Below, one piece after another: positions 18,148-53,283 of a stretch of DNA of 64,000 bases. The notes beneath the pieces were generated by a model. That model did not search any database, had not been told where the DNA came from, and worked only from the letters and a program-made list of their open reading frames with translations. The translations under genes and the position numbers were made by a program. This DNA comes from Myxococcales bacterium (GTDB lineage: Bacteria > Myxococcota_A > UBA9042 > JABWCM01 > BTVJ01), in assembly GCA_045863395.1 (NCBI GenBank), contig BTVJ01000004.1:96001-160000 (forward strand), written 5' to 3'. Position 1 is the first letter of the stretch, and each line of letters opens with the position of its first letter.

Positions 18148-20106
18148 ATGGCGCGCTGGTTGGTCCTGCTCCCGCTGCTCGCTGCGTGCGGATCCACGCC
18201 CTCCCCCGAGCACCACGCCTTCGCCGTGATGACGGACTGCGCGTCCTGCCACCTGGACCGCTGGAAGGCGTCCGAGCAGCCTCCCCACTCGGCGCTGGAC
18301 CTCCCCAAGGCGTGCGGGGACTGCCACACCACGGCCGGGTGGCCCGGAGCGAGCTTCGACATCCACGACCAGTTCTTCGTGCTGGACGGGCGGCACACGT
18401 CCCTGGACTGCAAGGACTGCCACGTGGGCGGCCAGTACACGGGCACCGCGGCGGAGTGCTTCGCGTGCCACGCGGCGGCCTACGAGGGCGCGGACGCTCA
18501 CCAGGACCGCGGCTACCCCCACGGGTGCGGCCGCTGCCACAAGACGAGCGGCTGGGAGCCCCCGACCTGGAAGGGCCACGGCTGGCCCCTGACGGGCAAG
18601 CACGCCAAGACGAAGTGCTCCGCCTGCCACGCGAACGAGGTCTGGGAGGGGACGCCGAGCACGTGCGCCGGCTGCCACCTGCCCGACTATCAGGGGGCGG
18701 CCGACCCGGACCATGTGGCCGCGAGCTTCCCTCAGACCTGCGAGGTGTGCCACGGGACGAGCGCCTGGGAGCCCGCCACGTACTCGGGGCACGACGACGT
18801 CTGGCCGCTCTTGGGCAAGCACCAGACGGCGCCGTGCGCCTCTTGCCACACGGGGGGCGTGTACTCCGGCACCCCGCGGGAGTGCAAGGGCTGCCACCTG
18901 CCCGACTACCAGGGAGCCAAAGACCCGGACCACGTGACGGCGGGCTACCCCACGTCCTGCGAGGTCTGCCACACGCCGGCGGCGTGGAAGCCCGCGAGCT
19001 TCGACGGACACGACACCTACTGGCCCCTGACGGGCAAGCACGAGGCCACGGTGTGTGGGTCCTGCCACGTGGGCGGCGTCTACGCCGGGACCCCGCGGGA
19101 GTGCAAGGGCTGCCACCTGCCGGACTACTCAGGCGCCAACGACCCGGACCACGTGGCCGCGGCCTTCCCCCAGACCTGTGACATCTGCCACTCGACGGCG
19201 GCCTGGGAGCCCGCCAGCTTCGCGGGCCACGACGCCTACTGGGCGCTGACCGGAAAGCACAAGGCCACGGAGTGTGGGTCGTGTCACGTGGGGGGCGTGT
19301 ACGCCGGCACCCCGCGGGAGTGCAAGGGCTGCCACCTGCCCGACTACTCAGCCGCCAAGGACCCGGACCACGTGGCCACAGGCTTCCCCCAGACGTGCGA
19401 CACCTGCCACTCCACGGCCGCGTGGGAGCCCGCGAGCTACGAGGGCCACGACGCCTACTGGGCCCTGACGGGCAAGCACAAGACCACGGCCTGTGGGTCC
19501 TGCCATGTGGGCGGCGTCTACGCCGGCACTCCGAAGCAGTGCGAGGGCTGCCACCTGCCGGACTACCAGGGGGCGGCGGACCCGGACCACGTGGCCTCGA
19601 GCTTCCCCAAGACCTGCGACACCTGCCACACCACCGCGGCCTGGGAGCCGGCGGCTTTTGGGGACCACGACGCCTTCTGGCCGTTGACCGGCAAGCACCA
19701 GACCACCTCGTGCGCGTCCTGCCACGCGGGGGGCGTCTACGCCGGCACCCCCAAGCAGTGCCAGGGCTGCCACACGCCCGACTGGACCGCCGCGGCCGAC
19801 CCGAGCCACAGCAAGCTCGCGCTTCCCAAGACCTGCGAGACGTGCCACACGACCAGCGGTTGGGCGACGACGAAGTTCCCCGGGCATGACACGCTGTTCC
19901 CGATCACGAGCGGCAAGCACAGTTTCTCGTGCGCGAGCTGCCACAAGGGAGCCACCTGGAGCGTGTTCACCTGCGTCGGCTGCCACGCCCTGTCCCAGAT
20001 GAACGCGAAGCACCTCGGGGAGGTCGGCAACTACCAGGCCACGCTCAACGCCGCGCCGACCGTCGACCACGGGTGCCTGAAGTGCCACCCGAAGGGAGAT
20101 GACTGA
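18148..20106 (+). CDS. Lipoprotein multiheme c-type cytochrome, 26 CxxCH, built from tandem tri-heme modules
   Basis: GGAGGG RBS, lipobox LAAC, 26 CxxCH motifs, 73-aa repeat. Confidence 0.92.
   Translation: MARWLVLLPLLAACGSTPSPEHHAFAVMTDCASCHLDRWKASEQPPHSALDLPKACGDCHTTAGWPGASFDIHDQFFVLDGRHTSLDCKDCHVGGQYTGTAAECFACHAAAYEGADAHQDRGYPHGCGRCHKTSGWEPPTWKGHGWPLTGKHAKTKCSACHANEVWEGTPSTCAGCHLPDYQGAADPDHVAASFPQTCEVCHGTSAWEPATYSGHDDVWPLLGKHQTAPCASCHTGGVYSGTPRECKGCHLPDYQGAKDPDHVTAGYPTSCEVCHTPAAWKPASFDGHDTYWPLTGKHEATVCGSCHVGGVYAGTPRECKGCHLPDYSGANDPDHVAAAFPQTCDICHSTAAWEPASFAGHDAYWALTGKHKATECGSCHVGGVYAGTPRECKGCHLPDYSAAKDPDHVATGFPQTCDTCHSTAAWEPASYEGHDAYWALTGKHKTTACGSCHVGGVYAGTPKQCEGCHLPDYQGAADPDHVASSFPKTCDTCHTTAAWEPAAFGDHDAFWPLTGKHQTTSCASCHAGGVYAGTPKQCQGCHTPDWTAAADPSHSKLALPKTCETCHTTSGWATTKFPGHDTLFPITSGKHSFSCASCHKGATWSVFTCVGCHALSQMNAKHLGEVGNYQATLNAAPTVDHGCLKCHPKGDD
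18580..19900 (+). repeat. Coding tandem repeat, 219-bp (73-aa) period, about 6 copies
   Basis: The unit W(P/A)LTGKH....CxSCHxGGVYAGTPxxCxGCHLPDY..A.DPDHV...FPxTCxxCH...WEPA...GHD recurs. Shadow ORFs start at 19055, 19274 and 19493, a spacing of 219. Confidence 0.9.
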
Positions 20107-31410: not shown

Positions 31411-31552
31411 CCGCGGCGGACACCCCTCCCTACCCTTGAGACTGGGCGCGAACTTCCCGAGTCCCTCCGCGCGCCGGGCGACGCGGGAGGGCACCGGGGC
31501 CGGAGGCTCCGCCGGGAGGCCGCGCAACACCTCATCGCGCGGAGGTTCGGTC

Positions 31553-34500
31553 ATGGTCATGAGGTTGGTAGCTGTGGCCGCGGCGCTCGCCGCGGCGCTC
31601 GGGTTGGCGAGGTGCGCGGAGGACACGTCCGAGACGCGCTCGCTGGCAGAGGTGCGCGTACTGCTCTCGTCGACGGACCTGCGGGCCGGAGACTCGCTCC
31701 AGGCCACGGTCCTCGCGGAGTACGACGACGCCACGCTCCGGGACGTGACGTTCCAGGTGACGTGGGCCTCGTCCAACGCGGCGGTCCTCGACGTGAGCCA
31801 GACGGGGCTCGTGCACGCCAAGGCGCCAGGCACCGCGAAGGTGGTGGCGACCTACGCGGGGATGAGCGGAGAGCTCTCCGTCGCTGTGACCGCCAAGGCC
31901 CTGTCGCTTGTGTTCATCGTGCCCGACGGCATGGAGCTGCGGCCCGGTGCGAGCCAGCAGTTCACGGCCATCGGCAGCTACGACGACGGGTCGTCCTCGG
32001 ACATCACGGCGCTGGCGACGTGGACCTCGTCCAACGAGACCATCGCGTCCGTGGACGCAGGCCTCGCCATCGCAAAGAGCGCGGGGCCGGCGAGCATCAC
32101 GGCGGAGCTGGACGGCGTCACGTCCGAGCCCGTCACGCTGACGGTCCTCGGCGTCACCCTGGTCGGCATCCAGCTCGACCCCACGACGGGCACGCTGAAC
32201 GCCGGCAGCGGCGAGACGCTCGAGATCGACGCCATCGGCATCTTCGACGACGGGACCCAGGCGGACATCTCCAAGGTCGTCGTGTGGGAGTCGAGCGACC
32301 CGGCCATCGCCGCCGTCGACACCAACGGCATCGTGACGCCGGGTACGGTGGCAGGGACGGCCGAGATCACCGCGGCCGTGGGGACCGTCGAGTCGTTCCC
32401 GGCGGTGATCGTGGTCCTCGCCTCGAATGAGGTGAAGACCGTGACCGTGGAGCCGGTGCTCGCCGCCTTCCCGGCGGGGTTCACGCAGGACCTGACCGCG
32501 ACGGTGACGTTCGCAGACGGCCGCACGGAGAACTTCACCACGAAGGCCAACTGGAGCAGCACGGACGAGACCATCGCGACGGTGGACTCCCACGGGCGGG
32601 TCACGGGCCACATGAAGGGGCACGTGATCATCAAGGCAGAGGTCTCCGGTGTGTTCGGTGGCGCCCTGCTGAGCGTGACCGACGCCACGATCACCGGCAT
32701 CACCCTCGACCCGCCCGCGGCGAGCCTGCCGGTCGGCACGACCATGGCCTTCAAGGCGACGGGCTTCTTCTCCGACGGCTCCATGTCCGACGTCACGTCG
32801 CGGGTGACGTGGACGTCCACGGACCCCGCCATCCTGACGGTGGACGGGGGGATCGCCACCGCGCTCGCCATCGGCGAGGCAACCATCGAGGCGGCCCTCG
32901 AGGATGTCGCGGCGACGGCGGACGTGGCCGTGGTGGAGGCCGTCTTCGACCACATCGCCATCACGCCGCCTGCCCCGACCCTGCCCGTCGGCCTGACAGT
33001 GCGCTTCCAGGCGACCGGGGTCCTGACCAACGGCACGACCATGGACCTGACGGAGAGCCCGAAGCTCTTCTGGACGAGCAGCGCCCCGGACATCGCGATG
33101 GTCTCCAACGCCGCGGGCGAGCAAGGCACGGCGACGGCGTTCGCGGTGGGCGGCGCCCTCATCGGGGCGACCTTCTCGGACGCAGGCTTCACCATGGAGG
33201 CGGACCCCGTCTTGCTGAGCGTGATCAACGCCGAGCTGCAGGGCATCCAGGTCACCCCGACCAGCCCGACCCTGCCGGCCGGCTTCGAGCTGCGCTTCCA
33301 CGCGACGGGGCTCTACTCGGACGGCAGCCTGCACGACCTGTCCCACGACGCGGTGTGGACGAGCAGCGCGCCCGGCGTCGCCACCGTGTCCAACGCGGCA
33401 GACCTGGAGGGCACCGTCTCGACGCTCCTGCCGGGCAGCGCCACAATCCGCGCGACCTTCGGCGCCCACTTCGGCGAGAGCCTGCTCACGGTGAGCAACG
33501 CCAAGCTGGTGTCGATCAGCGTGGCGCCGCCGGCGGCCTCGGTGGAGGTGGGCGCCACCTTCCAGCTCTCGGCCACGGGCAACTTCAACGACGGCACGAC
33601 CATGGACCTCACCAAGACCGCGGTGTGGTCGGTGGCTCCGGCGGACCTGGGGCGCGGCGTGACCGTCTCCAACGAGGTGGACCGCGAGGGCCTCGTCACC
33701 GTGTCGCCGCTGGCGACCCCGAGCCTGCTCCCGGTGACCATCTATGCGACCCACGGCACCGTGGCGGGCACGTCGGCCATCACCATCGTCAGCCCGACGG
33801 CGCTGACGGCGATCCTCGTGACGGTCGACCCCATGGTGATCCCCGTCGGCTACACGGGCAAGGCCACGGCGACCGGCCTGTACTCGGACGGCGTCCACGC
33901 GCCCGTCGCCAAGGACATCACGGCGCTGGTGACGTGGTCACCCTCCATCAGCGGCGTCGCGACGGTGTCCAACGGCTCCAGCGACAAGGGCACCGTCAAG
34001 GGCATCGGGCCCGGCACCGTCCTGATCAACGCGTGCCTGGGCGCCGTGTGCGCCAACGACCCGGGCGGCACGGGGGCGGCGGCCATCGTGACCGTCACCG
34101 CCTGCCCGTTCGTCGGCGTGAACCTGTCGCCAGCCGGGGCCCTCGCCCTGCCGAAGGGCATGGCCCGCCAGTTCAACGCGATGGCGATGTACGACGCGGC
34201 CTGCGGCGCCCCGCTGCCCGGCTACGACGTCACGGAGCTGTCGCTCTGGATCTCCTCGAACCCGGCGGTCGCCACGGTGAGCAACGCGGCGGGCACCCGC
34301 GGCCTGGTGACGGCGTCGGCCAACCCGCCGGCCGTGACCGTCCAGATCTCTGCCCACTTCGGGCCACTGATGGGCGCCAAGACGCTGACGATCATCGACG
34401 CCTGCGTGGCGGAGCTGACCGTGACGCCCGAGACCCTGTCGCTGCCCGTGGGCGTGCGCATGCCGTTCACGGCGACTGCGAAGATGACCGACGGCTCGAC

Positions 34501-37500
34501 CATCGACTACACCCAGATGGCCGTGTGGCAGGTCACGGGCGCGCTCGGCCTCGTCAAGCCCGGCGTCATCCAGACCTTCCCGGGGCAGCTCGGGACCGTC
34601 AAGGCGACGGCGGCGCCGACCCTGTCCTGCGCGTCCTTCAGCGACACGTCCACGGTCACGATCAACGACGCCGTGCTGACCAAGGTCGCCATCACGCCGG
34701 CGTCCGTCACGCTGCCCATCAACACGGCCATCAGCCTCAAGGCCAACGGCCTGTTCAGCGACGGGACCACGTTCGAGCTCACGGACATGGCGACCTGGAC
34801 GTCGTCCAACCCGGCCGTAGCCACGGCACAGCAGGGCGGGTACGTGATCGGCAAGGCCTCGGGCACGGCCGTCATCCTCGCCACCTGGTTCACGGTCAGC
34901 GGCGTCGCCAACATCAACGTGGAGGGCTTCGTCCTGTCCGGCCTGGTCGTCCAGCAGGGCGTGGACGCGGCGTGCGGCGACTTCGACGGCGCGGGCTTCG
35001 CCAGCGGCGTCCGCTTCCCGCTGCGGGCCATCGCCCACTACTCGGATGGCGGCAGCGAGGACGTCACCGGCGCCGTCGCCTGGTCCAGCGACAAGCCCGC
35101 CTTCGCGACGGTGGACGCGACGGGCATGGTCGAGACCAAGGCGGTCGGCACGGCGCTGATCAAGGCCACCCAGGGCGGCATCAGCGGGACGTTCCCCGTG
35201 AAGGTCCTGGACACGGATCTCGCGTCCATCGAGATCCAGCCCGGCAACGGGTTCATCATGCCGATCAACGCGACCCTGCCCTTCCGCGCCTTCGGTCACT
35301 ACGAGGCGCTCATCGGCGGGATCCTGCGCGCCGACACGTGCGAGATCACGACCATGGCCTCGTGGCTGGCCGCGCCGGACGACAGCATCGACATCACGGC
35401 GTTCGGGCTGGCCACGACCACGGCCACCCCGACGGAGACCGCCATCGTCACGGCGACCAAGGACGGCGTGGTGGCGGAGGTCCACGGCGAGGTGCGCGGC
35501 GCCTGCGTCGAGCACATCCGCCTGAAGCCAGAGGCGGGCACGACCATGCTCGGCGTCATGATGCAGTTCGAGGCGGAGGCCGTGCTCTCCGACGGCGCCT
35601 CCTACGTGATCACCGACTCTGCGACGTGGTCGACGTCGAACCCAGCCGTCGCGCAGGTCGCCGAGGGGACCATCGTGCCCATCACCCAGGGCGTCGTGAC
35701 CGTGTCCGCGACCTTCAACGCGGGCGCGGCGGCCTGCCCGCAGGTACCCGCGACGCAGACCGCGTCGGCGACCCTGACCGTGCTGCCGGCGGCGCTCGTG
35801 TCCATCCAGATCGCCTGCCCCGGCGCGGCCAACCTGTGGCCCGCCCCTGGCGGCCTGGCTCCGGGACTCCCGCCCGGGCTCGCCACGCACTGCACGGCGC
35901 TGGGCCTCTACTCCGACGGCACCACCGCCAACGTCACCGCCTCGGCGACCTGGACCAGCAGCGCACCGAACGTGGCGACCGTCAGCAACGCGGCCGGCTC
36001 GAAGGGGCGCGTCCTGACGCTGGGCGCGGGCATGGCGGGCATCGGCGCGGCGCTGCAGGGCGTCACCGGCTCGTGGTCGCTGCAGGTCGTCGGCGCGACG
36101 GTGGACGCGGTGACGGTCACCGGCCTGCCCACGCTCCCCGCGGGCTTCTCGCACCCGTTCACGGCGATGGCGGCCTACACCCTCGGGCCCGTCACGCACC
36201 ACTACGACGTCACGGCCATCGCGGCCTGGGCGTCGAGCGACACGAGCAAGGCGACCGTCAGTGACAACCCGGCCACCCGCGGGCTCGTGACCGCGCTCGC
36301 ACCCACCACGGGGCCCATCGCCATCACGGCGACGCACATGGGCAAGGTGGGGGCGCAGACGCTCCAGGTCCTCGCCGTGACGATGACGGCCATCGACGTG
36401 GGGCCGTCGCCCCTCGCGCTCGCCGTCGGGCAGGAGAAGCAGCTCACGGCGACCGCCTTCACCAAGGACTCGCAGGGCGGCACGCACTCCAAGGACGTGA
36501 CCACGCAGGTCTCCTGGAGCACGACGGACCCGGCGGTGGCCTCTGTGACCAACACGGGCAAGGTGACCGCGCTCGGCCTGGGCGCAGTCGCGATCATCGC
36601 GCAGATCGGCCCCGTGAGCGGGAGCGCGTCCATCGCGGTGGAGCCGCGCTGCATCGCCTCGCTGACCATGGCGCCGGCGGCGACGACCGTGCCCGCGGGC
36701 GTCCCGCTGACCTTCGCGGTGACGGCGCACTACACGAGCGGGCCGACGCAGGACGTGACCGGCGACGTGACCTTCGTGAGCACCGACCCGGCGCGCATCC
36801 CGAACCCGGACTACGCGGGCTGGACCTTCGCCCACCCCGGCGCTGCGCCTGGGATGGTGGCGGTCTACGCGCACCTCGACGGGGGCGGCTGCTCCGGGGC
36901 GCTCCAGGCCGCGGCCGCCGTCGCCATCAACGGCGCGACGCTCCTCGACATCGCGGTGCAGAGCGACCAGATGCAGGTTCCGGTGGGCCTGTCCACGCAG
37001 TTCCACGCCATCGGCTCCTACAGCGACGGAACGAGCTACGACATCACGCGGACCATCGACTCGTGGATGACGGGCAAGGCCTCCGTGGCGGTCGTCTCGA
37101 ACGCCGGCGCGCTGAAGGGCCGCGTGACCGGTGTGGGGCTCGGCACCACGCCCATCGTCGCGACGCAGGGCAACATCTCCGGCGCGAACGAGGTCACGGT
37201 GACCTCGGCGACCCTGACGTCCGTCTCCGTGGCGGGCCTCGACACGGCAGGCGCGTGCCACCCGAAGTACGGCGCGGCCTCGTGGATCAAGGCCGGCTTC
37301 GCCCATCCGGCGGGTGGCCTCACCACGTGGGCGCGAGCCCTCGGCCACTACAGCAACGGCCTCGCCTACGACATCACCGACTCGGTGACCTGGTCGTCCT
37401 CGAACCCGGCGCGGGCGGCCATCGCCACCGGCAACGGGAGCTCGGGTCGCATCACGACGGGCGGCCAGGCGGGCAACGTGACCCTGACCGCGGAGACGCC

Positions 37501-38092
37501 GAGCGGCTTTGTGGGGAGCATCCTCTTCACGGTCAAGCCCGGCCTCCTCGATCAGCTCGTGATCAACCCGGCCGGCGCCGACCCGCTCGTGCTGCCGCTC
37601 GGCTTCGGCACACAGCTCGAGGTGGTAGGCCGCTTCTCGGGCGCCTGGCACTGCGCCACGGAGGACGCGCAGTACGCCTCGGCCGACACGGCGGTCGCGA
37701 CGGTGACCGACACCGGCTGGGTGGACTCGCGCGGCCTCGGGTTTGCGATGCTGACCGCGACCCTCGGGGTCGTGAACGACACGATCCTCGTCAAGGTCAA
37801 CGACGCCACGCTGGCGCTCATGGAGACAATCCCGGCGGACGTGTCGCTCTTCGTCAACGACACGGCCCAGCTCCAGGCGCTGGCGCACTTCAGCGACGGC
37901 ACGATCAACGACGTGACCTTAAGCCCGAAGACCACGTGGTTCACGAGCAACGAGGCGGTCGCGAGCCTCACCCACGCCAAGGGCGGCGTCCTCGCCGTGG
38001 CGCCCGGTGTGGCCTTCATCGACGCCTGCATCCAGGGTGTCTGCGCCGCTGACTCCGTCCTCACCACCAAGGTGACGGTGATGGCGCCGTAG
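31553..38092 (+). CDS. Giant lipoprotein of tandem bacterial Ig-like (Big_2) domains, adhesin-like
   Basis: GGAGG RBS, signal peptide ending LARC, about 20 or more roughly 90-aa repeats of the form ATG.YSDG...DVT..VTWSSSNP.VATVS. 2179 aa. Confidence 0.88.
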   Translation: MVMRLVAVAAALAAALGLARCAEDTSETRSLAEVRVLLSSTDLRAGDSLQATVLAEYDDATLRDVTFQVTWASSNAAVLDVSQTGLVHAKAPGTAKVVATYAGMSGELSVAVTAKALSLVFIVPDGMELRPGASQQFTAIGSYDDGSSSDITALATWTSSNETIASVDAGLAIAKSAGPASITAELDGVTSEPVTLTVLGVTLVGIQLDPTTGTLNAGSGETLEIDAIGIFDDGTQADISKVVVWESSDPAIAAVDTNGIVTPGTVAGTAEITAAVGTVESFPAVIVVLASNEVKTVTVEPVLAAFPAGFTQDLTATVTFADGRTENFTTKANWSSTDETIATVDSHGRVTGHMKGHVIIKAEVSGVFGGALLSVTDATITGITLDPPAASLPVGTTMAFKATGFFSDGSMSDVTSRVTWTSTDPAILTVDGGIATALAIGEATIEAALEDVAATADVAVVEAVFDHIAITPPAPTLPVGLTVRFQATGVLTNGTTMDLTESPKLFWTSSAPDIAMVSNAAGEQGTATAFAVGGALIGATFSDAGFTMEADPVLLSVINAELQGIQVTPTSPTLPAGFELRFHATGLYSDGSLHDLSHDAVWTSSAPGVATVSNAADLEGTVSTLLPGSATIRATFGAHFGESLLTVSNAKLVSISVAPPAASVEVGATFQLSATGNFNDGTTMDLTKTAVWSVAPADLGRGVTVSNEVDREGLVTVSPLATPSLLPVTIYATHGTVAGTSAITIVSPTALTAILVTVDPMVIPVGYTGKATATGLYSDGVHAPVAKDITALVTWSPSISGVATVSNGSSDKGTVKGIGPGTVLINACLGAVCANDPGGTGAAAIVTVTACPFVGVNLSPAGALALPKGMARQFNAMAMYDAACGAPLPGYDVTELSLWISSNPAVATVSNAAGTRGLVTASANPPAVTVQISAHFGPLMGAKTLTIIDACVAELTVTPETLSLPVGVRMPFTATAKMTDGSTIDYTQMAVWQVTGALGLVKPGVIQTFPGQLGTVKATAAPTLSCASFSDTSTVTINDAVLTKVAITPASVTLPINTAISLKANGLFSDGTTFELTDMATWTSSNPAVATAQQGGYVIGKASGTAVILATWFTVSGVANINVEGFVLSGLVVQQGVDAACGDFDGAGFASGVRFPLRAIAHYSDGGSEDVTGAVAWSSDKPAFATVDATGMVETKAVGTALIKATQGGISGTFPVKVLDTDLASIEIQPGNGFIMPINATLPFRAFGHYEALIGGILRADTCEITTMASWLAAPDDSIDITAFGLATTTATPTETAIVTATKDGVVAEVHGEVRGACVEHIRLKPEAGTTMLGVMMQFEAEAVLSDGASYVITDSATWSTSNPAVAQVAEGTIVPITQGVVTVSATFNAGAAACPQVPATQTASATLTVLPAALVSIQIACPGAANLWPAPGGLAPGLPPGLATHCTALGLYSDGTTANVTASATWTSSAPNVATVSNAAGSKGRVLTLGAGMAGIGAALQGVTGSWSLQVVGATVDAVTVTGLPTLPAGFSHPFTAMAAYTLGPVTHHYDVTAIAAWASSDTSKATVSDNPATRGLVTALAPTTGPIAITATHMGKVGAQTLQVLAVTMTAIDVGPSPLALAVGQEKQLTATAFTKDSQGGTHSKDVTTQVSWSTTDPAVASVTNTGKVTALGLGAVAIIAQIGPVSGSASIAVEPRCIASLTMAPAATTVPAGVPLTFAVTAHYTSGPTQDVTGDVTFVSTDPARIPNPDYAGWTFAHPGAAPGMVAVYAHLDGGGCSGALQAAAAVAINGATLLDIAVQSDQMQVPVGLSTQFHAIGSYSDGTSYDITRTIDSWMTGKASVAVVSNAGALKGRVTGVGLGTTPIVATQGNISGANEVTVTSATLTSVSVAGLDTAGACHPKYGAASWIKAGFAHPAGGLTTWARALGHYSNGLAYDITDSVTWSSSNPARAAIATGNGSSGRITTGGQAGNVTLTAETPSGFVGSILFTVKPGLLDQLVINPAGADPLVLPLGFGTQLEVVGRFSGAWHCATEDAQYASADTAVATVTDTGWVDSRGLGFAMLTATLGVVNDTILVKVNDATLALMETIPADVSLFVNDTAQLQALAHFSDGTINDVTLSPKTTWFTSNEAVASLTHAKGGVLAVAPGVAFIDACIQGVCAADSVLTTKVTVMAP

Positions 38093-38406
38093 CTCCAGCC
38101 GCAGGGGTAATCGGCCTCCGCCTCTGGGCACCCAGGGGCGCGCGACGCGGCGAAGCCCCCCCATCCAACCGTTCGTACGGTATCCACACCGCTGCCTCGG
38201 CCAAGGGCTCGGGCTCGACAGATGCCCCTGGGTATGTCGGTCTGCCTCCCCGCGTGCAACCACCCCGGAGCGATTCACGAGAGCGCCTCTCCAGCCGACC
38301 ACGCCCTCCCCCTTCCGTCAACCGCCACCATCGACGGCCAACCATCCATGAGCACCGCAGACGGAACGGTCCAAAGGAGCCTCAAGAACCGTAGAGGCGT
38401 TTCCCC

Positions 38407-38436
38407 TTGACACGTCGCATACCACGAGTCGATTAT
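38407..38436 (+). promoter_or_regulatory. Candidate sigma70 promoter of the 38.5-46.1 kb operon
   Basis: TTGACA-N18-GATTAT, followed by the AAGGAGGT Shine-Dalgarno and ATG at 38502. Confidence 0.5.
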
Positions 38437-38501
38437 CGCTCGCGTGCCACACGAACCGAGCGCCCTCCGCTCGGTCCCAGTTGGGAAGGAGGTAGACCAA
38501 G

Positions 38502-39172
38502 ATGAGCTTGCCGCCCCGCAACACACACACACACACACACACTCTCTCTCTCTCTCTCTCGTGTTCTTCGCGCTGCTGCAGTCTGGCCTCATTGATCACC
38601 GGAATGCGACCTGTGACCCGAAGGCACCTTCCAAGGAACCACTCCTTCTGCTGGACGTAGTGGTGGACGCCAGCAAGAAGACCGATGACTACCTTGTGCT
38701 TTCCGTCGATGGCACGAATGTTCCTCCTCCGTTCGTCCTGGTACGCGAAGAGCTCTGGCTCTCTGTAATCGGCACCGCACCCTTCCTTGCCTGGGCTCGC
38801 TCACACACATCCCGCCCGGGAGACCCAGAACCAGGCACGACAGTCCACCAGTGGCCTCACTCGATCACGGTGCCTCAGGTGTTCTCTCCAGGCTACGACG
38901 CTACCGTCATTGTCCTTGCCAGGCGGCCAGGAGGGGAACTGCTGAACCTTGTGATCGAGCTCCCCGCGTCGATGCTCACTCTCATTCCGGCGCCCGAGAA
39001 GAAGCAGCTCAAGTCAACGACCGCGAAAGGAGCGTTGTTCGACCTCTATGCGGCAAAGGTCGCTGCCTTCGACGAGCTGCTCCTTGACTTGACCGAAGAG
39101 CTGGACGCGTTGCCGGAGGCAGAGAGGGCAGAACTGTACGGGGTCCTCAACGCGACAGCGCTGGGCCAGTAG
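38502..39172 (+). CDS. Hypothetical protein, apparently frameshifted at the microsatellite (the long frame opens at GTG 38444; the best start ATG 38502 is out of frame)
   Basis: Strong SD plus ATG 38502 gives a short ORF ending at a TAG near 38660. The downstream frame runs to 39172 and is coupled to the next gene (TAGGAGG). Confidence 0.55.
38521..38560. repeat. Compound dinucleotide microsatellite (AC)11(TC)9
   Basis: Read directly: 38521-38542 (AC)11, 38543-38560 (TC)9. Confidence 0.97.
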
Positions 39173-39184
39173 GAGGCGGAACCG

Positions 39185-42148
39185 ATGAACTCAAGAATAA
39201 TGCTCGCGGCCTTGCTCACCCTCTCTTCCACCTCCGTGCTCGCGGCGACATCCGCGGATGGCCGCATCTTCCACGTCACCGACCCCGGGAACATCTACTA
39301 CAAGTATGTGACGATACCGCAGACCGGTGTCTGGCGGTTCCGGACTTATCTTGGGAGCGAGGGGCTCGATACGGTCATTCACGTGTGGGACCTGGGGCTC
39401 GACCAGCACGCGAGGTCCAACGATGATGCCGGCTTCGGTACCTGTAACGACCTCAAGCCGACCCATGAGAAGACATCCTGCCTCGATCTACAATTGACCG
39501 CTGGGCAACAGGTCATCGTTTTCGTCCGCAGATACAACAACCAGAGTTCCGGTACGTGCCTCTTCCGGGTGTCCTCTGTCGGCTATGGTCAACTCGTGGA
39601 CGACGTCATCTCGCCTGCAGGTGATGTCACCTACCGGTGGGGCACTGGGGCGGTTGTTTCCTGGGACGCTAACGAGACGATTCAGACCGCCTATGCGCCG
39701 GTCCGCCAGGTGACCGTCGGGACCCCCTGGAGCAACGGACTTCTGACGCCGACTGTGCTCGTGCTGGCTGGAGCCGAGCGCCTGTACCGCTACACCCGAA
39801 CAGACGACTTTGGTTTTGGGGCAGGCACGAGCCAGGGAGGCCCATCGATTTGGGGACAGCCAGGCATTCTGCTACCGGAGTCCTCGGCTTCGATAACCCC
39901 TTACCCCAACACGACGGCTCCATATCACTACGTCGTGGGCGGAGACCCCTACGCGTGGAACAACCCTACGCTCTATGGAGACGGACGGCTTACGTTCTAT
40001 CGCAACGATGCGACAGTGCCCGGCCATGACCCCGACGATGACAACCTCGGTGATGCCCTCGAAGATGCGCTGGGAACCTGCAAGCGAGCGCAGGCCTGCC
40101 CTGGCCGAGACCCGAGGGACTCGGACGAGGACGGACTGCGCGACGACTGGGAGACCATCGGCGGCTGCACGTTCAATGGCTGTGACCCGCAGTCAGAGAA
40201 CGCCATCAACCTGGCCTACTACGGCGCCAGCCCGATGAGAAAGAACCTGCTCGTTCAGGTCGATTGGATCTCGCATCCCAGCGAACCTGTCGACAAGTGG
40301 GGGCTTCTCGCCGGCGGGCTGAGCGAGATCGTAGAGGCGTTCGCCTCGGAACAGACCAGCGTGGAGGTACCGAAGGAAGCAATTCGCGTCTTCTTCGACT
40401 TTGGCCAGCTCCCCGCCGGGGGAGCCGGTGGCAACGAGGTCGTCTACTCCGACCATGTCGCCGTTTCCAACAAGCGCCCGGCCTGCGGAGATTACTTGAC
40501 GTGCAGCCTCGGCTCCTCCTGCCCCAGCTTGACCGTTGGGGGAGCAACGTACTTGCAGTCGTGCAGCACCTATGGACCTCCTGGGGAGGCTCGCTGCATT
40601 CCAAGCTGCAGCGGCGGCCAGTGCCCACCCGAGCTGGTGTGCACACCCGGAAAGTGTTTGCCGAAGCCGGAGCTTCCATGCGCATCGACCAGCGACTGTA
40701 TGATCGACGGGCGAGACGAGTGTGTCTTTGACGGCGTGTCGAGCGACCGCCTCTGTCGTAGTGAGTTCTGCCGGGCTCCGTGGGCACCGTGCGTCGCTGA
40801 GCAGGCTGACCCGGCTTGCTTTGGCCCGTGGCCGTCATGCGCGCCCGATGTGCCCGGAGCGTGTGAGGCAGCCGGCAAATACTGCGTCGCGGATCCACAC
40901 AACGGCGCAGGGGCACACGTGTGCGTGCCCACGGACTGCAAGGCTCCATGCATGCGCCATCAGTCCATCCACGAGCCGTTCAACTTCCAACGGATGCTGC
41001 GAGGATCGCCGGGCAGCGCATGGTCACTCATGCCGCTGAACAGACGAGGGCTGTTCACGGAGGTCTGGCTGGGCCGGGGACTCCAGGCGTCTGAGGGACA
41101 CGAGAGTTCGGTGCTGGGCACCACCAATTTCCGGACGTGCACGTGGCCTTCCAGCGGGCAGGACTGCATGACCGTGTGGCCCGGTTTCATCGAGTTGGGC
41201 TCGGAGGAGAAGGGCGTTCCGTTCAGCCAGGAAGTACCGCCTGGTACTCCGGTCGATTGGACGAGTACGGTGTTTCACGAGCTCGGGCACATACTGGGGC
41301 TCCAGGACGGCGTGGTCGAGTTCGTGAGCGGAGCCGAATGCCACTGGGATACTGACTGCGCATGGCCTCAACGCTGCGTGGGGTCGCAGTGCGCCCACTC
41401 TACATGGCAGAATGTCCCAAACCACGTGAGCAGCATGAACTACTACTTTCTCCACCGGGTCGACGCCGTTGGGCACATCGACTTCTCCAGCGGGGTGCGC
41501 CCGCGGGTCGAGCCGTTCACGGTGGTGGCGTCCTCGTGTGAAGATCCCGCCTGCCCAGACTATGGCGACCCCGGCTGCCCCCTGCCACCCGGCCGCAATC
41601 CGCCGGGAGGAAAGTGCTGCCTGGTGGACGGCGATTGGCCGACTGCGCCGCACTACTGCGTGGGTCCAGGACTGAGGGAGGACGTAGGAATCGGGAACCT
41701 CTACGACCGGCGAGGAAACGACTACCTGGCCAATCGGCTATTCCAGTTGGGTGAGATGAAGTGCATGACCAACGAAGTCGGGCATGCGCAGGGTATCGGA
41801 CCGGCGCCCGTGCGACTCCTCGAGCAGGATCCTGGGATCGACTGGAACAAGAATGGAGTCGAAGACCCGACCCAGGTGGGCGGGTTCGTGCGCGAGCCTG
41901 GACACTGCTACGGTGGACAGAATGTGCACGAGTATGTGGACGTGAACGAATGGGACATCGCCTGGGGGGGGGGCTTCGATCACATCGGCGTTCGGGAGGT
42001 GCCGGCGCTGGCCGTGGTTGGGACACCGCTGTGCAGCGCCATCGAGGCGGTGGAGTGTCCACCGGGGTTTGAGTGCAAGCACGGCGAGTGCCTGCCGGCG
42101 CTGGCTCCGGAGGCGGTGCGATTCTCGTACCAGTGCGCTGCGGAATGA
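39185..42148 (+). CDS. Secreted Cys-rich zinc metalloprotease (metzincin-like) with PPC-like and Ca-binding segments
   Basis: Signal peptide, DTVIHVWD..NDD (PPC-like), DSDEDGLRDDWE, GASPMRKNLLVQVDW, VFHELGHILGLQDG, Met-turn-like SSMNY. Confidence 0.72.
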   Translation: MNSRIMLAALLTLSSTSVLAATSADGRIFHVTDPGNIYYKYVTIPQTGVWRFRTYLGSEGLDTVIHVWDLGLDQHARSNDDAGFGTCNDLKPTHEKTSCLDLQLTAGQQVIVFVRRYNNQSSGTCLFRVSSVGYGQLVDDVISPAGDVTYRWGTGAVVSWDANETIQTAYAPVRQVTVGTPWSNGLLTPTVLVLAGAERLYRYTRTDDFGFGAGTSQGGPSIWGQPGILLPESSASITPYPNTTAPYHYVVGGDPYAWNNPTLYGDGRLTFYRNDATVPGHDPDDDNLGDALEDALGTCKRAQACPGRDPRDSDEDGLRDDWETIGGCTFNGCDPQSENAINLAYYGASPMRKNLLVQVDWISHPSEPVDKWGLLAGGLSEIVEAFASEQTSVEVPKEAIRVFFDFGQLPAGGAGGNEVVYSDHVAVSNKRPACGDYLTCSLGSSCPSLTVGGATYLQSCSTYGPPGEARCIPSCSGGQCPPELVCTPGKCLPKPELPCASTSDCMIDGRDECVFDGVSSDRLCRSEFCRAPWAPCVAEQADPACFGPWPSCAPDVPGACEAAGKYCVADPHNGAGAHVCVPTDCKAPCMRHQSIHEPFNFQRMLRGSPGSAWSLMPLNRRGLFTEVWLGRGLQASEGHESSVLGTTNFRTCTWPSSGQDCMTVWPGFIELGSEEKGVPFSQEVPPGTPVDWTSTVFHELGHILGLQDGVVEFVSGAECHWDTDCAWPQRCVGSQCAHSTWQNVPNHVSSMNYYFLHRVDAVGHIDFSSGVRPRVEPFTVVASSCEDPACPDYGDPGCPLPPGRNPPGGKCCLVDGDWPTAPHYCVGPGLREDVGIGNLYDRRGNDYLANRLFQLGEMKCMTNEVGHAQGIGPAPVRLLEQDPGIDWNKNGVEDPTQVGGFVREPGHCYGGQNVHEYVDVNEWDIAWGGGFDHIGVREVPALAVVGTPLCSAIEAVECPPGFECKHGECLPALAPEAVRFSYQCAAE
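41964..41973. repeat. G10 homopolymer inside the metalloprotease gene
   Basis: CCT GGGGGGGGGG CTT, currently in frame (WGGG). Confidence 0.9.
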
Positions 42149-43461: not shown

Positions 43462-46092
43462 ATGAGCGTGCGCACCGCCGCTTCGGTCGCCGCCGCCCTC
43501 TCGTGGTGTATGGCCGCGGGTCCCAGGCCAGTCGTCGCCACCGCGGGCCCGTGCGTCGTAGGCCTGCCCCTGAACGCTGGCTGCGGCTCGGTCGCACCGG
43601 CGGGCTGCTGCGCGGGCGGCAACGTCCTGTGGTGCGCCCCCGACGGGGTGACACTCTGTGCCCTGGAGTGCGTCGGCGCTGGCACATGCGGATTCGCTGT
43701 CACCCACGAGATATACGACTGCGGAACGGCGGGTCTGGCCGACCCCACGGGCACGCTCCCCATGCAGTGCGATTGGGCGTGTGCGCCGGACTGCACGGGG
43801 AGGCAGTGCGGCCCCGACGGCTGCCTGGGGAGCTGTGGAGACTGTCCACAGGACACCCCGCTGTGCGCGTCCGGTGGCCAGTGCGTCTCCTGTCTTCCTG
43901 ACTGCGACGGCAAGACGTGTGGGCTCGACGGCTGCGGCGGGCTGTGTGGCGTGTGTCCAGTCGGCCTGGACTGCGACCCGAATGGCCACTGTTGCACACC
44001 GGACTGCACAGGGGCGGAGTGCGGGTCGGACGGCTGCGGGGGCACGTGCGGCGCCTGTGGATGGCCGATGCACTGCAGCCCGGGCCGCACGTGCGAGGAG
44101 TGCGGGTGCAGCGGCAGGGTCTGCGGCAACGATGGCTGCGGCGCGAGCTGCGGCACATGCCCCGCCGGACAGGGCTGCACGCCGGACGGGACGTGTGCGC
44201 CCGCTCCCGCCGGCTGCTCCCCAGGGGAACTCGGCTGCAGCGGCTGCGCCTGCGGCACGTGCGTCTGCGCAGGCGACCCCTGGTGTTGCTCCGTTGCATG
44301 GGACTCGCTGTGCGCGGTGGCGTGCGCGAGGTGCGAGGGCTGCGGGGATCTCTGCGTCCCAGACTGCCAGGGAAGGGTGTGCGGGGACACAGACGGCTGC
44401 GGTGGCTCCTGCGGCACGTGCCCGCAGGGGATGCGCTGCGCCGGATTCGGGAAGAAGTGTCTCCCCTGCGGCTGCACCGCCAAGGAGTGCGGAGACGACG
44501 GCTGTGGCACAAGCTGCGGGAGCTGCCCCCCAGGAGAGGTCTGTGCGAAGGGCTCGTGCGTTCCCCTCGGCTGCGGAGTGACCGCGTCGCCCGGGTGTGC
44601 CGGGTGCGCGTGCGAGGAGTGCGTTTGCAGCATCGACCCGGCCTGCTGCACGGTGGCATGGGACGCGACCTGCGCCACCGCCTGCCGCTACGAGTGCCAG
44701 GGCTGCCCCTGCATCCCCGACTGCGATAGCCGCGAGTGTGGGTGGGTCGGCTGCGGCTACAAGAAGTTCACGTGCGGGAGCTGTCCCGCGGGCGCCGTCT
44801 GCACGTTGGACGGCCTCTGCTGCAAGCCGAGCTGCAAGGGCAAGGAGTGCGGGAGCGACGGCTGCGGCGGGCTCTGTGGTGAGTGCTCGACGGGCCAGGT
44901 GTGCCACGCCGGCAAGTGCACCTGTGTGCCGGTGTGCGAGGGGAAGGCGTGCGGGCCAGATGGCTGCGGAGGCTCCTGCGGAGACTGCCCGGGGAGCACC
45001 GCGTGCAGGGGCGGGAGCTGCGAGCCCGACTATCCGGCCGCGTGCCTGGGGTCGAAGGTCCCCAGCGCAGATGCGTGCCCGGTGGGACTCGGCTTCGAGG
45101 GCTGCTGCGACGACCAGGGCCGTGTCGTGTGGTGCGAGGGCGGTGCGTTGCACTGCCTCGCCTGCGCCTCGAAGGACGGCTGCGGCTGGAGGACGCAGAA
45201 GCCGAGCGGTGAGGCCGCGGCGTGGTACGACTGTGGCGGCTCAGGCGCAGACCCTGCGGGGACGTTCGCGCTCCTGTGCGGCGCGCTCTGCGTCCCGGCC
45301 TGCACAGGTCACGAGTGCGGTCCCGACGGCTGTGGCGGGACGTGCGGCTCCGGGTGCGGACCGGACGTCCCGTGCGTCGATGGCCACTGCTCCCCGGTCA
45401 GTCCGGACGCCGTCGGCGGCGACGGAGGCGCGGAAGACACGTGGCTGAGCGACGGGAGCGTGGGCGACGGCGGCAGCCTGGACGACGGTGGCAGCCTGCA
45501 TGACGGTGGTGCCGAGGACGTTGCCAGCGACGTGGCCCCGGCGCCCGACGAGGGCTCGACGGACGAGGCGTCACCGGACGACGGGACGACGCGACCGAGG
45601 GACGCGGTCGAGGCCAGGGGCGGTGACGGAGGTGCGGCCTCAGACTCCTGGACCAGATTGACCGGTGATGGCTCCGGGGGAGGACGCGGGACGCACGACA
45701 GCGCCGGGGGCCGAATTGGGGCTGACGCTCTCCCCGATGACGCTCTCGCGCGCGGCAGGCCCGAGCCTCGCCCTGGCGTCGATGCTCGAACGTCGGACGC
45801 GGCCGAGGCAACGCCCGACACAGGCTCCACCTGCGGCGAATCGCGGGGCGGCTGCAGAGACGGCGTGCTTGGTGGCGGAGCCGGACCGGGCCCCGGCGAG
45901 GGCTGCGGGGGATGCGCCGCGTCTGGAGGCGCACCAGGGGGCGCACAGGCAGGTGCCCTGGTCGCCTTCGTGGCTCTCCTGACATGGAGTCACCGGCTGG
46001 GCTCCCGTTCGGCACCACAGACCAGGCAGACCTGGCGCCTCCGACCGCGGGTGCGCTTGTACGCGCCAACTTGGCCGTCGACCCGAGCTTGA
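43462..46092 (+). CDS. Cys-rich repeat surface protein with a MYXO-CTERM-like tail
   Basis: AGGAGG RBS, many CxPDCxGxxCGxDGCGGxCGxC repeats, acidic linker, GCGGCAAS...ALVAFVALLTW followed by a basic tail. Confidence 0.78.
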   Translation: MSVRTAASVAAALSWCMAAGPRPVVATAGPCVVGLPLNAGCGSVAPAGCCAGGNVLWCAPDGVTLCALECVGAGTCGFAVTHEIYDCGTAGLADPTGTLPMQCDWACAPDCTGRQCGPDGCLGSCGDCPQDTPLCASGGQCVSCLPDCDGKTCGLDGCGGLCGVCPVGLDCDPNGHCCTPDCTGAECGSDGCGGTCGACGWPMHCSPGRTCEECGCSGRVCGNDGCGASCGTCPAGQGCTPDGTCAPAPAGCSPGELGCSGCACGTCVCAGDPWCCSVAWDSLCAVACARCEGCGDLCVPDCQGRVCGDTDGCGGSCGTCPQGMRCAGFGKKCLPCGCTAKECGDDGCGTSCGSCPPGEVCAKGSCVPLGCGVTASPGCAGCACEECVCSIDPACCTVAWDATCATACRYECQGCPCIPDCDSRECGWVGCGYKKFTCGSCPAGAVCTLDGLCCKPSCKGKECGSDGCGGLCGECSTGQVCHAGKCTCVPVCEGKACGPDGCGGSCGDCPGSTACRGGSCEPDYPAACLGSKVPSADACPVGLGFEGCCDDQGRVVWCEGGALHCLACASKDGCGWRTQKPSGEAAAWYDCGGSGADPAGTFALLCGALCVPACTGHECGPDGCGGTCGSGCGPDVPCVDGHCSPVSPDAVGGDGGAEDTWLSDGSVGDGGSLDDGGSLHDGGAEDVASDVAPAPDEGSTDEASPDDGTTRPRDAVEARGGDGGAASDSWTRLTGDGSGGGRGTHDSAGGRIGADALPDDALARGRPEPRPGVDARTSDAAEATPDTGSTCGESRGGCRDGVLGGGAGPGPGEGCGGCAASGGAPGGAQAGALVAFVALLTWSHRLGSRSAPQTRQTWRLRPRVRLYAPTWPSTRA

Positions 46093-51303: not shown

Positions 51304-53283
51304 CTACTGGCAGGCGTCCCCGACCCCGTCCTTGTTGACGTCCTTCTGCGACGGATTGTGGATGAGCGGGCAGTTGTCGATGACGTCCGGCACACCGTCC
51401 TCGTCGTTGTCGTTGGCGCAGGCGTCCCCCACGCCGTCGAAGTTCGTGTCCTTCTGGTCCGGGTTGGGGATGAACGGGCAGTTGTCCTTGCCATTCGGGG
51501 CCCCGTCGCCGTCGTAGTCGTTCTCGCAGGCATCTCCGTGGCCGTCGCCATCGGTGTCGGTCTGGTCCGGGTCGGGCACGAGGGGGCACAGGTCCACGCC
51601 ATTTCCCACCCCGTCGCCGTCGAAGTCTCCCTCGCAGGCGTCTCCCTGGCCATTCTGGTTGGAGTCCTTCTGCGTCGGGTTCGCGACGATGAAGCAGTTG
51701 TCGCAGAAGTCTCCCCACCCGTCGCCATCCACGTCGTGCTGAGACGGGTTCGAGTTGTACGGACAGTTGTCCAGAGAGTCCACGACCCCGTCTCCGTCCC
51801 AGTCGGAGCAGACGTCTCCGGTGCCGTCCAGGTTGAAGTCCGCCTGGTTCGGGTTGTGGACCCCCGGGCAGTTGTCGACCACGTCCGGCACTCCATCTCC
51901 GTCGTAGTCCGACTCGCAAGCGTCTCCGACCTTGTTGCCGTTCTTGTCTGCCTGATCCGGGTTGTAGAGCCAGTAGCAGTTGTCGATCTTGTCCGGGACG
52001 CCGTCTCCGTCGATGTCGTTCTCGCACGCATCCCCATCCCCGTCGCCGTCCGTGTCTTTCTGGTCCGGGTTGTGCACGAGCAGGCAGTTGTCGAGGAAGT
52101 TCGGGACCCCGTCCCCGTCGAAGTCTCCCTGGCAGGCGTCTCCCTGGCCGTCCTTGTTGCTGTCCTTCTGGTTCGGGTTCGCGACGAGCAGGCAGTTGTC
52201 GCACAGGTCTCCGTGGCCGTCTCCGTCCTTGTCCGCCTGCGACGGGTTGTTATAGGCCGGGCAGTTGTCCACCGCGTCCTTCACCCCGTCGCCGTCCCAG
52301 TCCGAGCAGGCGTCGCCCACGCCGTCCTTGTTCCAGTCTGCCTGCGCGGGATCGTAGACGGAGGGGCACGTGTCGATCTGGTCCGGGACCCCGTCCTGGT
52401 CCGAGTCCACGTCGCAGGAGTCTCCAAGGCCGTCTCCGTCCGTGTCTGCCTGATCCGGGTTCGGGATTCCCGGGCAGTTGTCGACTGGGTTCGGGACGCC
52501 GTCGCCGTCGAAGTCGTTCTCGCAGGCGTCTCCCTGGCCGTCTCCGTCGGAGTCTGTCTGGTCCGGGTTGGCCACGGCCGGGCAGTTGTCCTCGCCGTCC
52601 TCCACGCCGTCGCCGTCCACGTCCTCCTCACAGGCGTCGCCCCGCCCGTCGCCGTCGCCGTCCGTCTGATCCGCGTTCGCCACCAGGTGGCAGTTGTCGC
52701 AGAAGTCGCCGATCCCGTCGCCGTCCACGTCGCTCTGCCCGGGATTGTGGAGCTGCGGGCAGTTGTCGTCCGCATCCGGCACGCCGTCGCCGTCCTGATC
52801 GCCCGGCGCCGCATCGTAGACCGAGGTGGTGTCGGGCTGTCCCGCATCGGGAGAGGCGTCGCCTCCAGCGTCCGGGGACCCTCCGTCCGGCCCGTCACCA
52901 CCGCCGTCTCCCCCGACATCGCTGGCGCCGCCGGCGTCGCCACCACCGGCATCGCCGGGCCCCCCTCCGTCGCCGGCGCTGGCCGCGCCGTCCCCTCCCG
53001 GCGCATCGCCCGCCGGACCCACCGCGTCGCCTTCCTCGCCCCGCGTCCCCGCGTCCAGCGGGTCGAGGCCGAGCGGGACGCACTCCTTCAGGGCAGGGTC
53101 ACACCAGGTGCCACCGGGGCAGTCGAGGTGGTCCTGGCACGGGCCCCCGGCCGCGGTGACGCACTCCCCGTGGTAGCACACCTGCCCGCCCTCGCACTCG
53201 TCGTGGCTCGCACAGGCAGGCGCCGTGCCGTCGTCCGCACAGCCTACGAGGGCGACTGCGATCAAGAGGAGAGTGCGCATCAT
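51304..53283 (-). CDS. Lipoprotein with 15 thrombospondin type-3 (Ca-binding) repeats
   Basis: Lipobox LVGC, small Cys-rich domain, G/D linker, 15 DxDGDGxxDxxDNCPxxxNPxQxD units. Confidence 0.9.
   Translation of the reverse strand: MMRTLLLIAVALVGCADDGTAPACASHDECEGGQVCYHGECVTAAGGPCQDHLDCPGGTWCDPALKECVPLGLDPLDAGTRGEEGDAVGPAGDAPGGDGAASAGDGGGPGDAGGGDAGGASDVGGDGGGDGPDGGSPDAGGDASPDAGQPDTTSVYDAAPGDQDGDGVPDADDNCPQLHNPGQSDVDGDGIGDFCDNCHLVANADQTDGDGDGRGDACEEDVDGDGVEDGEDNCPAVANPDQTDSDGDGQGDACENDFDGDGVPNPVDNCPGIPNPDQADTDGDGLGDSCDVDSDQDGVPDQIDTCPSVYDPAQADWNKDGVGDACSDWDGDGVKDAVDNCPAYNNPSQADKDGDGHGDLCDNCLLVANPNQKDSNKDGQGDACQGDFDGDGVPNFLDNCLLVHNPDQKDTDGDGDGDACENDIDGDGVPDKIDNCYWLYNPDQADKNGNKVGDACESDYDGDGVPDVVDNCPGVHNPNQADFNLDGTGDVCSDWDGDGVVDSLDNCPYNSNPSQHDVDGDGWGDFCDNCFIVANPTQKDSNQNGQGDACEGDFDGDGVGNGVDLCPLVPDPDQTDTDGDGHGDACENDYDGDGAPNGKDNCPFIPNPDQKDTNFDGVGDACANDNDEDGVPDVIDNCPLIHNPSQKDVNKDGVGDACQ

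Follow-up and report, generated by a model that had tools for sequence, protein, structure and literature searches.

A compound dinucleotide repeat as a probable slipped-strand switch on a predicted secreted peptidase operon of a Myxococcales bacterium

The first gene of a four-gene operon in a Myxococcales bacterium carries a compound dinucleotide repeat within its signal-peptide codons, and is out of frame as assembled. We propose that this tract is a slipped-strand contingency switch acting, in a fraction of cells, on the leader gene and probably also on the coupled gene for a putative metzincin-type peptidase; judged from sequence, the probability of this reading is about 0.78. Comparison supports it well, since paralogous cassettes stand in both phases, long repeats elsewhere in the genome are enriched at similar places, relatives carry repeats at the same end of their genes, and a homologue begins like the frame read from the proposed start codon. 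The original prediction of slipped-strand phase variation in an OFF state is supported by the frame of the gene and by paralogues and relatives that carry other repeats, in both phases; its "two-dial" form is not.

Coordinates refer to the window, that is, the whole stretch of 64,000 nucleotides that was analysed (contig BTVJ01000004.1, positions 96,001 to 160,000). The features of the operon are as follows.

38407..38436, forward strand: predicted sigma-70-like promoter, TTGACA-18-GATTAT (1 found, 0.1 expected in shuffles)
38444..38446, forward strand: GTG in frame with the long open reading frame, a possible leaderless start (no Shine-Dalgarno sequence)
38486..38493, forward strand: near-perfect Shine-Dalgarno sequence, AAGGAGGT, 8 nt 5' of the ATG
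38502..38660, forward strand: frame of the ATG as assembled, an out-of-frame peptide of 52 aa
38521..38560, forward strand: (AC)11(TC)9 within signal-peptide codons, the candidate slipped-strand switch (Tandem Repeats Finder, frame and chance computations)
38561..39172, forward strand: main part of the leader gene (203 codons), for an exported protein outside any named family, with a predicted beta-sandwich and C-terminal helical hairpin
39185..42148, forward strand: secreted 987-aa metzincin-type peptidase-like protein, Shine-Dalgarno sequence overlapping the leader stop codon
42145..43449, forward strand: kelch beta-propeller lipoprotein-like gene, ATG overlapping the peptidase stop (ATGA)
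43462..46092, forward strand: Cys-rich exported protein with a MYXO-CTERM-like tail, Shine-Dalgarno sequence overlapping the stop of the preceding gene

The repeat is a perfect array of 40 bases, with (AC)11 at 38521-38542 and (TC)9 at 38543-38560, and begins 19 nt 3' of the Shine-Dalgarno-backed ATG 38502. Sequence and frame checks agree on this position and on the out-of-frame state, as originally described. The stop expected near 38660 and the hydrophobic stretch expected right after the tract were both found, and the promoter together with three tightly linked genes downstream bears out the placement of the gene as first of its operon; the spacer between Shine-Dalgarno sequence and ATG, given as 7 nt, is actually 8 nt, a one-base slip. 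The long frame is open from GTG 38444 to 39172. When lengths were computed from -3 to +3 dinucleotide units, the ATG joined this frame at -1 or +2 units, exactly the changes foreseen, and not at -3, -2, 0, +1 or +3. The tract is a 5' coding, non-triplet repeat whose length sets the frame. Both of its parts have 2-base units, so that the summed length alone sets the frame, and every related locus seen uses a single simple repeat; the idea of two dials is therefore unsupported. At most, and this is speculation, the AC/TC split could change the length and hydrophobicity of the signal peptide.

For a genome of 8.77 Mb and 70.9% GC, a dinucleotide model gives chance expectations of 4e-7 for (AC)11 and 6e-4 for (TC)9, and the tract is the window's only such dinucleotide array among 80 Tandem Repeats Finder rows. 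The mutS and mutL frames are intact, which indicates that mutability is local and not genome-wide. The repeat is far above chance length and locally confined, as distinct from a mutator state. Counted against the switch reading, the signal peptide of the window leader gene is without a clear cleavage site. No terminator-like site was found in 38050-39300, and a hairpin at 38455-38475 was non-significant (z -0.99).

The four genes are coupled through overlapping stops, Shine-Dalgarno sequences and starts, and form a low-GC island (GC3 of 0.72-0.83, versus 0.92-0.97 in the flanking genes). The leader protein gave no Pfam or NCBIfam match and no usable match in the ESM Atlas. A model from 7 sequences (pLDDT 70.6) consists of a beta-sandwich and a helical hairpin; in fold searches the best structural Z was 6.0, with Ig/FN3-like sandwiches tied and no family-level match. 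A protein search with the leader alone returned only itself, and 0 of 40 relatives matched; a leader profile found nothing in 106 genomes of the class and matched 2 of 400 in the phylum. Four of nine profile matches were left out of alignment A2: P0005, P0008 and P0009, which are long repeat proteins and apparently spurious, and P0004, which looks chimeric. The conserved leader C-termini, LGG or KEVTP, are encoded by codons that also spell the Shine-Dalgarno sequence of the peptidase (window 39172, C67, C120, C40, L184, L185, L183); part of the conservation of the leader protein may therefore be at the RNA level.

The 987-aa protein carries the zinc motif HExxHxxGxx(H/D) as HELGHILGLQD at residues 698-708, with Asp and not His as third ligand, and also has TSP3-like Asp repeats and a Cys-rich insert. 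HExxH is found in 18 of 18 further family members, 16 ending in H and two with a later D. Alignment A4 displays a near-invariant Met behind the zinc motif, aligned with the serralysin Met of the Met-turn. The window protein alone matched no Pfam family; Pfam M12-type models matched weakly in 12 of 26 members, and a profile of these 26 members matched serralysin (E 3.5e-9), myroilysin, reprolysins and matrixins. We read the second gene as encoding a putative metzincin-type peptidase.

Other repeat-rich or exported proteins were noted in the window. A 2218-aa lipoprotein-like protein with many Big_2 Ig domains lies directly upstream of the island (31436-38092, forward strand). Five 219-base tandem repeats at 18670-19783, with the consensus CHLPDY and CDICH, are like those of a multiheme or Cys-His repeat protein, and 108-base tandem repeats at 51310-52731 on the minus strand resemble thrombospondin type 3 (Asp-rich) repeats.

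Two further copies of the cassette exist in the genome, one on contig C67 and one on contigs C115 and C120; a TIGR03901 match lies behind the kelch gene of the latter (C120:6715-6801). Both leaders have Shine-Dalgarno-backed ATG starts and clear signal peptides, with the tract behind the signal peptide: G11, out of frame, in C67 and G15, in frame, in C115. The two leaders share 86% DNA identity with a dN/dS of 0.19, indicating that the out-of-frame C67 leader is not an old pseudogene. Purifying selection on out-of-frame gene bodies is seen both here and in a pair of cassettes of a related genome, G326 (dN/dS 0.44). The C67 and C115 leaders could be strains rather than copies, given 3.5% contamination; the tract differs either way. 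Two more distant cassettes, C26 and C40, are built alike, with a small repeat-bearing leader coupled to a large gene for an HExxH protein.

The assembly (186 contigs, 97% complete, 3.5% contamination) holds 18 MYXO-CTERM matches, which fit the Myxococcota label. It contains 20 dinucleotide runs of at least 6 units; seven have at least 9 units and make up six tracts, all of which adjoin a start codon (on its 3' side) or an export signal (on its 5' side). Homopolymers and octamers are similarly placed at the 5' ends of genes for exported proteins, and HExxH proteins are also among the targets. The tracts are listed by contig.

C4, dinucleotide tract of the window: out of frame
C165, (TC)17: in frame, PPC-domain lipoprotein
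C31, (GA)16: in frame
C166, (TC)15: out of frame
C10/C121, dinucleotide tract at a pair of contig ends: looks like one gene broken in the tract, S8 peptidase (C121)
C1, C15 run: out of frame
C128, C15 run: out of frame, S8 peptidase
C95, C12 run: out of frame
C26, C10 and G16 runs: out of frame
C48, (8-mer)6: out of frame
C40, C14 run: in frame
C93/C112 and C186: broken in 8-mer tracts, M4 peptidase (C112)

A combined test for Shine-Dalgarno sequence, start, long frame and hydrophobic stretch was passed by 9 of 14 interior long non-triplet repeats, as compared with 185 of 4000 random places. The criteria of this test were fixed after the cases had been seen; one positive, C38, is probably false, and C128, C166 and C26:4854 fail yet fit by eye. 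Perfect 7-, 8- and 10-base repeats outside the exported-protein pattern lie at C38:28300-28334 (before an HTH-like gene), C45:426-473 (after a stop codon) and C41:1-120 (at a contig end). A second repeat-gated exported family, which resembles two fused genes, was found at C31:80562-82817, C1:308949-311165, C48:2481-4799 and C20:953-3439. Its layout comprises an N-terminal domain, a MYXO-CTERM-like anchor, a second signal-like stretch and an HExxH domain; all four copies have a 5' repeat, each with a different unit, that of C20 being a degenerate 8-mer.

In related genomes, with its own genome counted, the peptidase profile found a match in 56 of 401 from the phylum and in 32 of 107 from the class. 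Among the returned loci, 21 in which the match starts near the N-terminus, from 21 genomes, were inspected. A non-triplet repeat lies at the 5' end of the peptidase or leader in 11 of them (as we read them, 5 in frame and 6 out), the units being G11, G10, C11, C12, C15, three 5-mers, two 7-mers and one 8-mer; no such repeat occurs over 48 kb covering the gene bodies and the DNA downstream of them. Two loci had helped to build the profile, and without them the count is 10 of 19. Controls gave 1 of 30 for TolB (a T9 run) and 61 of 3000 for random windows. Kin are not independent; therefore, we place no weight on a P value for this excess. In a second, more distant sample of 30 loci, which included many weak matches, a script found repeats in 8 of 25 complete 5' ends; by eye, 5 of 25 were convincing and one more was truncated in its tract.

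Two same-genus orthologues, about 69% identical, share one 5-base unit, present 11 times and in frame in one, 8 times and out of frame in the other, and in another genus three genomes carry three different 7-mers. The two cassettes of G326 have G11 and G8, the cassette of G165 is repeat-free and in frame, and G089 contains an out-of-frame family member with (TC)14. Across the family, units of 1, 2, 5, 7 and 8 bases are seen. The (TC)9 run is present in 10 of 106 genomes of class relatives, with the layout of Shine-Dalgarno sequence, ATG, repeat and signal in 2 of 11 inspected loci. The only shared upstream motif was a set of sigma-70-like boxes, in 7 of 14 loci. Two loci stand apart: L190 (G004:C35) has an out-of-frame (TC)10 tract in the signal peptide of another target, a 553-aa leucine-rich repeat-like surface protein, and in the first 40 bases of L241 (G028:C267) a C13 run directly behind TTGACA, like a promoter-spacer switch, lies upstream of a peptidase-family member.

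These repeats might be unselected expansions in dispensable, recently acquired genes, whose signal-peptide codons would tolerate them until a frameshift begins pseudogenisation. The low-GC character of the operon agrees with such an origin, as do second lesions in related genes with short or degenerate repeats (C109, C9, C23), which decay would give, and structural reasons for the tolerance of repeats at protein termini are put forward in the available sections of PMC3315296. However, the tracts are perfect, come in many different units and recur at the same place in this family but not in TolB; one 5-base unit has been kept across about 30% DNA divergence; most out-of-frame genes have long intact bodies, with a dN/dS of about 0.2; and non-triplet units predominate although triplets would be better tolerated. 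We therefore consider unselected expansion unlikely. In the S8 peptidase gene at C109:10760-10950 (minus strand), (TCTCT)3 stands behind the ATG, with one in-frame TAG after the signal peptide and the remaining frame intact.

The switch reading places the start at ATG 38502. This codon is favoured because the N-terminus of the homologue P0003 (41% identical), MLAPPPR right before the hydrophobic stretch, resembles the ATG frame, MSLPPR before the tract. The start of P0003 was set by a gene caller, and no alignment was obtained when the 52-aa ATG peptide was compared with P0003 by pairwise BLAST. No restart backed by a Shine-Dalgarno sequence exists among the 11 internal start codons of the leader, and the database copy of the window leader protein begins at an internal GTG.

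Alternatively, a leaderless transcript could be translated from GTG 38444, in which case the gene would be in frame as assembled, with the tract still coding. This codon is kept as a minor rival since its distance of 7 nt from the -10 box upstream would suit the beginning of a leaderless transcript, and since it is in frame to 39172; the paralogues C67 and C115 likewise have a start codon 7 nt behind weaker -10 candidates. Its N-terminus is acidic, however, unlike a signal-peptide n-region, the near-perfect Shine-Dalgarno sequence directs to ATG 38502 whereas none stands at the GTG, the first residues of P0003 match the ATG frame, and in the paralogues the upstream frame stops 5' of the tract. 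GTG 38444 is thus less likely than ATG 38502 as start, and exclusive leaderless translation is very unlikely. If both starts were in use, three states would result: the GTG form at 40 nt, the ATG form at 38 or 44 nt, and none at 36 or 42 nt.

The stretch was also sought in public sequencing runs. It occurs in runs from sludge, wastewater, bioreactors and aquatic sites; at least half of its words are present in 14 of 24 rows, and RNA runs contain 0.45 and 0.22 of them, by word content only. Contigs were compared at the tract for 4 of the 24 listed runs. Contig X1, at depth 20 and possibly from the source sample, spans the tract at the assembled length. In X4, two records end within the tract, and their unseen ends sum to a 30-base overlap at the assembled length; this fits a graph branch, but also low-complexity words that occur in other DNA as well. 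Two further studies are represented by X6 and X7, which carry contigs near-identical to the stretch, with gaps at low depth. Both display an Asn-to-Lys change in the leader body (window 39151), and X6 also differs upstream of the leader gene, by an inserted base and a single change (window 38155, 38417). A metagenome scan with the leader profile confirmed 0 of 160 candidates, and one with a 23-base flank gave a single match, due to chance, in an ATP-synthase gamma gene.

Repeats are error-prone and the assembly is broken in three other such tracts (C10/C121, C93/C112, C186), but it is highly improbable that the frameshift is a consensus error in a population fixed in frame, as the independently built depth-20 contig, even if it may come from the source sample, has the identical tract length, out-of-frame states are common over many genomes and unit types, and such an error would alter the state of the gene and not the presence of the repeat.

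In the proposed switch, replication slippage would add or drop 2-base units in either half of the tract, and one length in three would restore the frame of ATG 38502. Out of frame, translation would end at 38660 and the next 524 nt would go untranslated; expression of the downstream genes would then fall through lost translational coupling or Rho polarity. The compound form would most simply reflect two adjacent expansions, adding no second output. The genome would hold at least a dozen such switches, this tract among them, mostly on predicted secreted peptidases (S8, M4, HExxH) or their leaders, and the outcome would be a mixed population with different enzyme sets. An effect on the peptidase is suggested by the overlapping junctions and by the presence of rho in the genome. 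Composition and folding lend it little support: the C/G ratio of the untranslated stretch is 1.10, and predicted mRNA folding leaves the downstream starts no more occluded (unpaired 0.31-0.52) than the first-gene starts (0.37-0.69).

The tract had been called very unusual for a high-GC environmental bacterium. This can be upheld for its compound nature; the layout of Shine-Dalgarno sequence, ATG and (TC)9 occurs at at least 119 places in the genome collection, many of them in environmental MAGs. Among 80 loci examined, the tract is followed by a frame of at least 140 codons in 30 (against 11 in an opposite-strand control), 25 of these 30 being out of frame and 5 in frame; 36 have no long frame, 7 are too short and 7 have no open start. 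H. pylori loci were recovered as positive controls, L075 out of frame and L090 in frame, and MAGs named Planctomycetota, Myxococcales, Polyangiaceae, Bryobacterales and others are included, so the layout is not confined to pathogens. Several loci are on eukaryote-like contigs or non-coding, and we therefore claim no prevalence. Eight loci (L060, L064, L071, L078, L088, L095, L109, L131) from Solirubrobacterales or Solirubrobacteraceae MAGs share a conserved element in which a short frame starting MRQ precedes a TC repeat of 21-23 bases and no long frame follows; this is probably a conserved non-coding or leader element.

Long simple repeats have been tied to host-dependent bacteria (PMC4060949, available sections, citing Mrazek 2007), and the N-terminal bias of repeats is reported mainly for pathogens in the accessible portion of PMC3315296. 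The reason why environmental bacteria have repeat switches is named an open question in the accessible text of PMC5909438. The term phase variation requires reversibility and a rate above about 1 in 100,000 (PMC11868660, section 6), and out-of-frame states can leak with Mycoplasma mod repeats, according to the available part of 10.64898/2026.04.01.715767. In the available text of a myxobacterial genomics review (PMC8538405), phase variation appears only in a reference, and the open-access literature searched yielded no account of such repeat switches, whether in Myxococcota generally or on the secreted peptidases of this phylum.

The mechanism is already known, while the target family and lineage were not found described in that literature. 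What deserves attention is that different repeats have been gained again and again across one family, and not the compound tract. A wider proposal, which we offer tentatively and hold to be somewhat short of an even chance, is that free-living Myxococcota bear phylum-wide contingency switches on secreted peptidases. One unnamed metzincin family would repeatedly gain 5' frameshifting repeats, often in a coupled leader that gates the operon, and the production of costly extracellular or prey-attacking enzymes would be shared out at random among clonal cells. Repeated gain in one family, in large GC-rich genomes of free-living bacteria, offers a clear target (exported peptidases) and a control, so that bet-hedging of public-good enzymes can be tested, together with its possible drivers (phage, protists, prey or cost). 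The family is under-annotated, because gene callers shorten these genes and assemblies break in the tracts.

Known systems share parts of this arrangement. The predicted enzymes have in common with metzincins (serralysin, myroilysin, reprolysin-like M12) the motif HExxHxxGxxH/D and a near-invariant Met; they differ from the named ones in domain order and in a Sec-type signal, their activity being a prediction, and a repeat switch on metzincin-type genes was not found in the literature searched. In H. pylori, oipA (hopH) and related outer-membrane-protein genes have a CT repeat in signal-peptide codons (PMC10564699, available sections). As there, a TC/CT dinucleotide repeat lies in the 5' signal-peptide region, its number sets the frame, and the product is exported. 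Unlike that case, the host here is free-living, with a genome of 8.8 Mb, 71% GC and intact mismatch-repair genes, and the target is not an adhesin but the leader gene of a secreted peptidase operon, with a compound AC+TC tract and a switch deduced from DNA. The poly-G tracts in the signal-peptide region of Neisseria pilC1/pilC2 (PMC13190605, accessible text) likewise involve paralogous exported-protein genes, each with a 5' frameshifting tract, comparable to the G11 and G15 paralogues. In contrast to pilC, the paralogues here differ in unit (dinucleotide, G/C runs, 5-, 7- and 8-mers), and no host immune system acts as selective agent. Finally, the SSR-bearing Type III mod genes of environmental bacteria, as presented in parts of PMC5909438, share with this family the occurrence of repeat switches outside pathogens and the repeated, independent gain of different units; mod genes switch a cytoplasmic methyltransferase, whereas the targets here would be exported peptidases and their leader genes.
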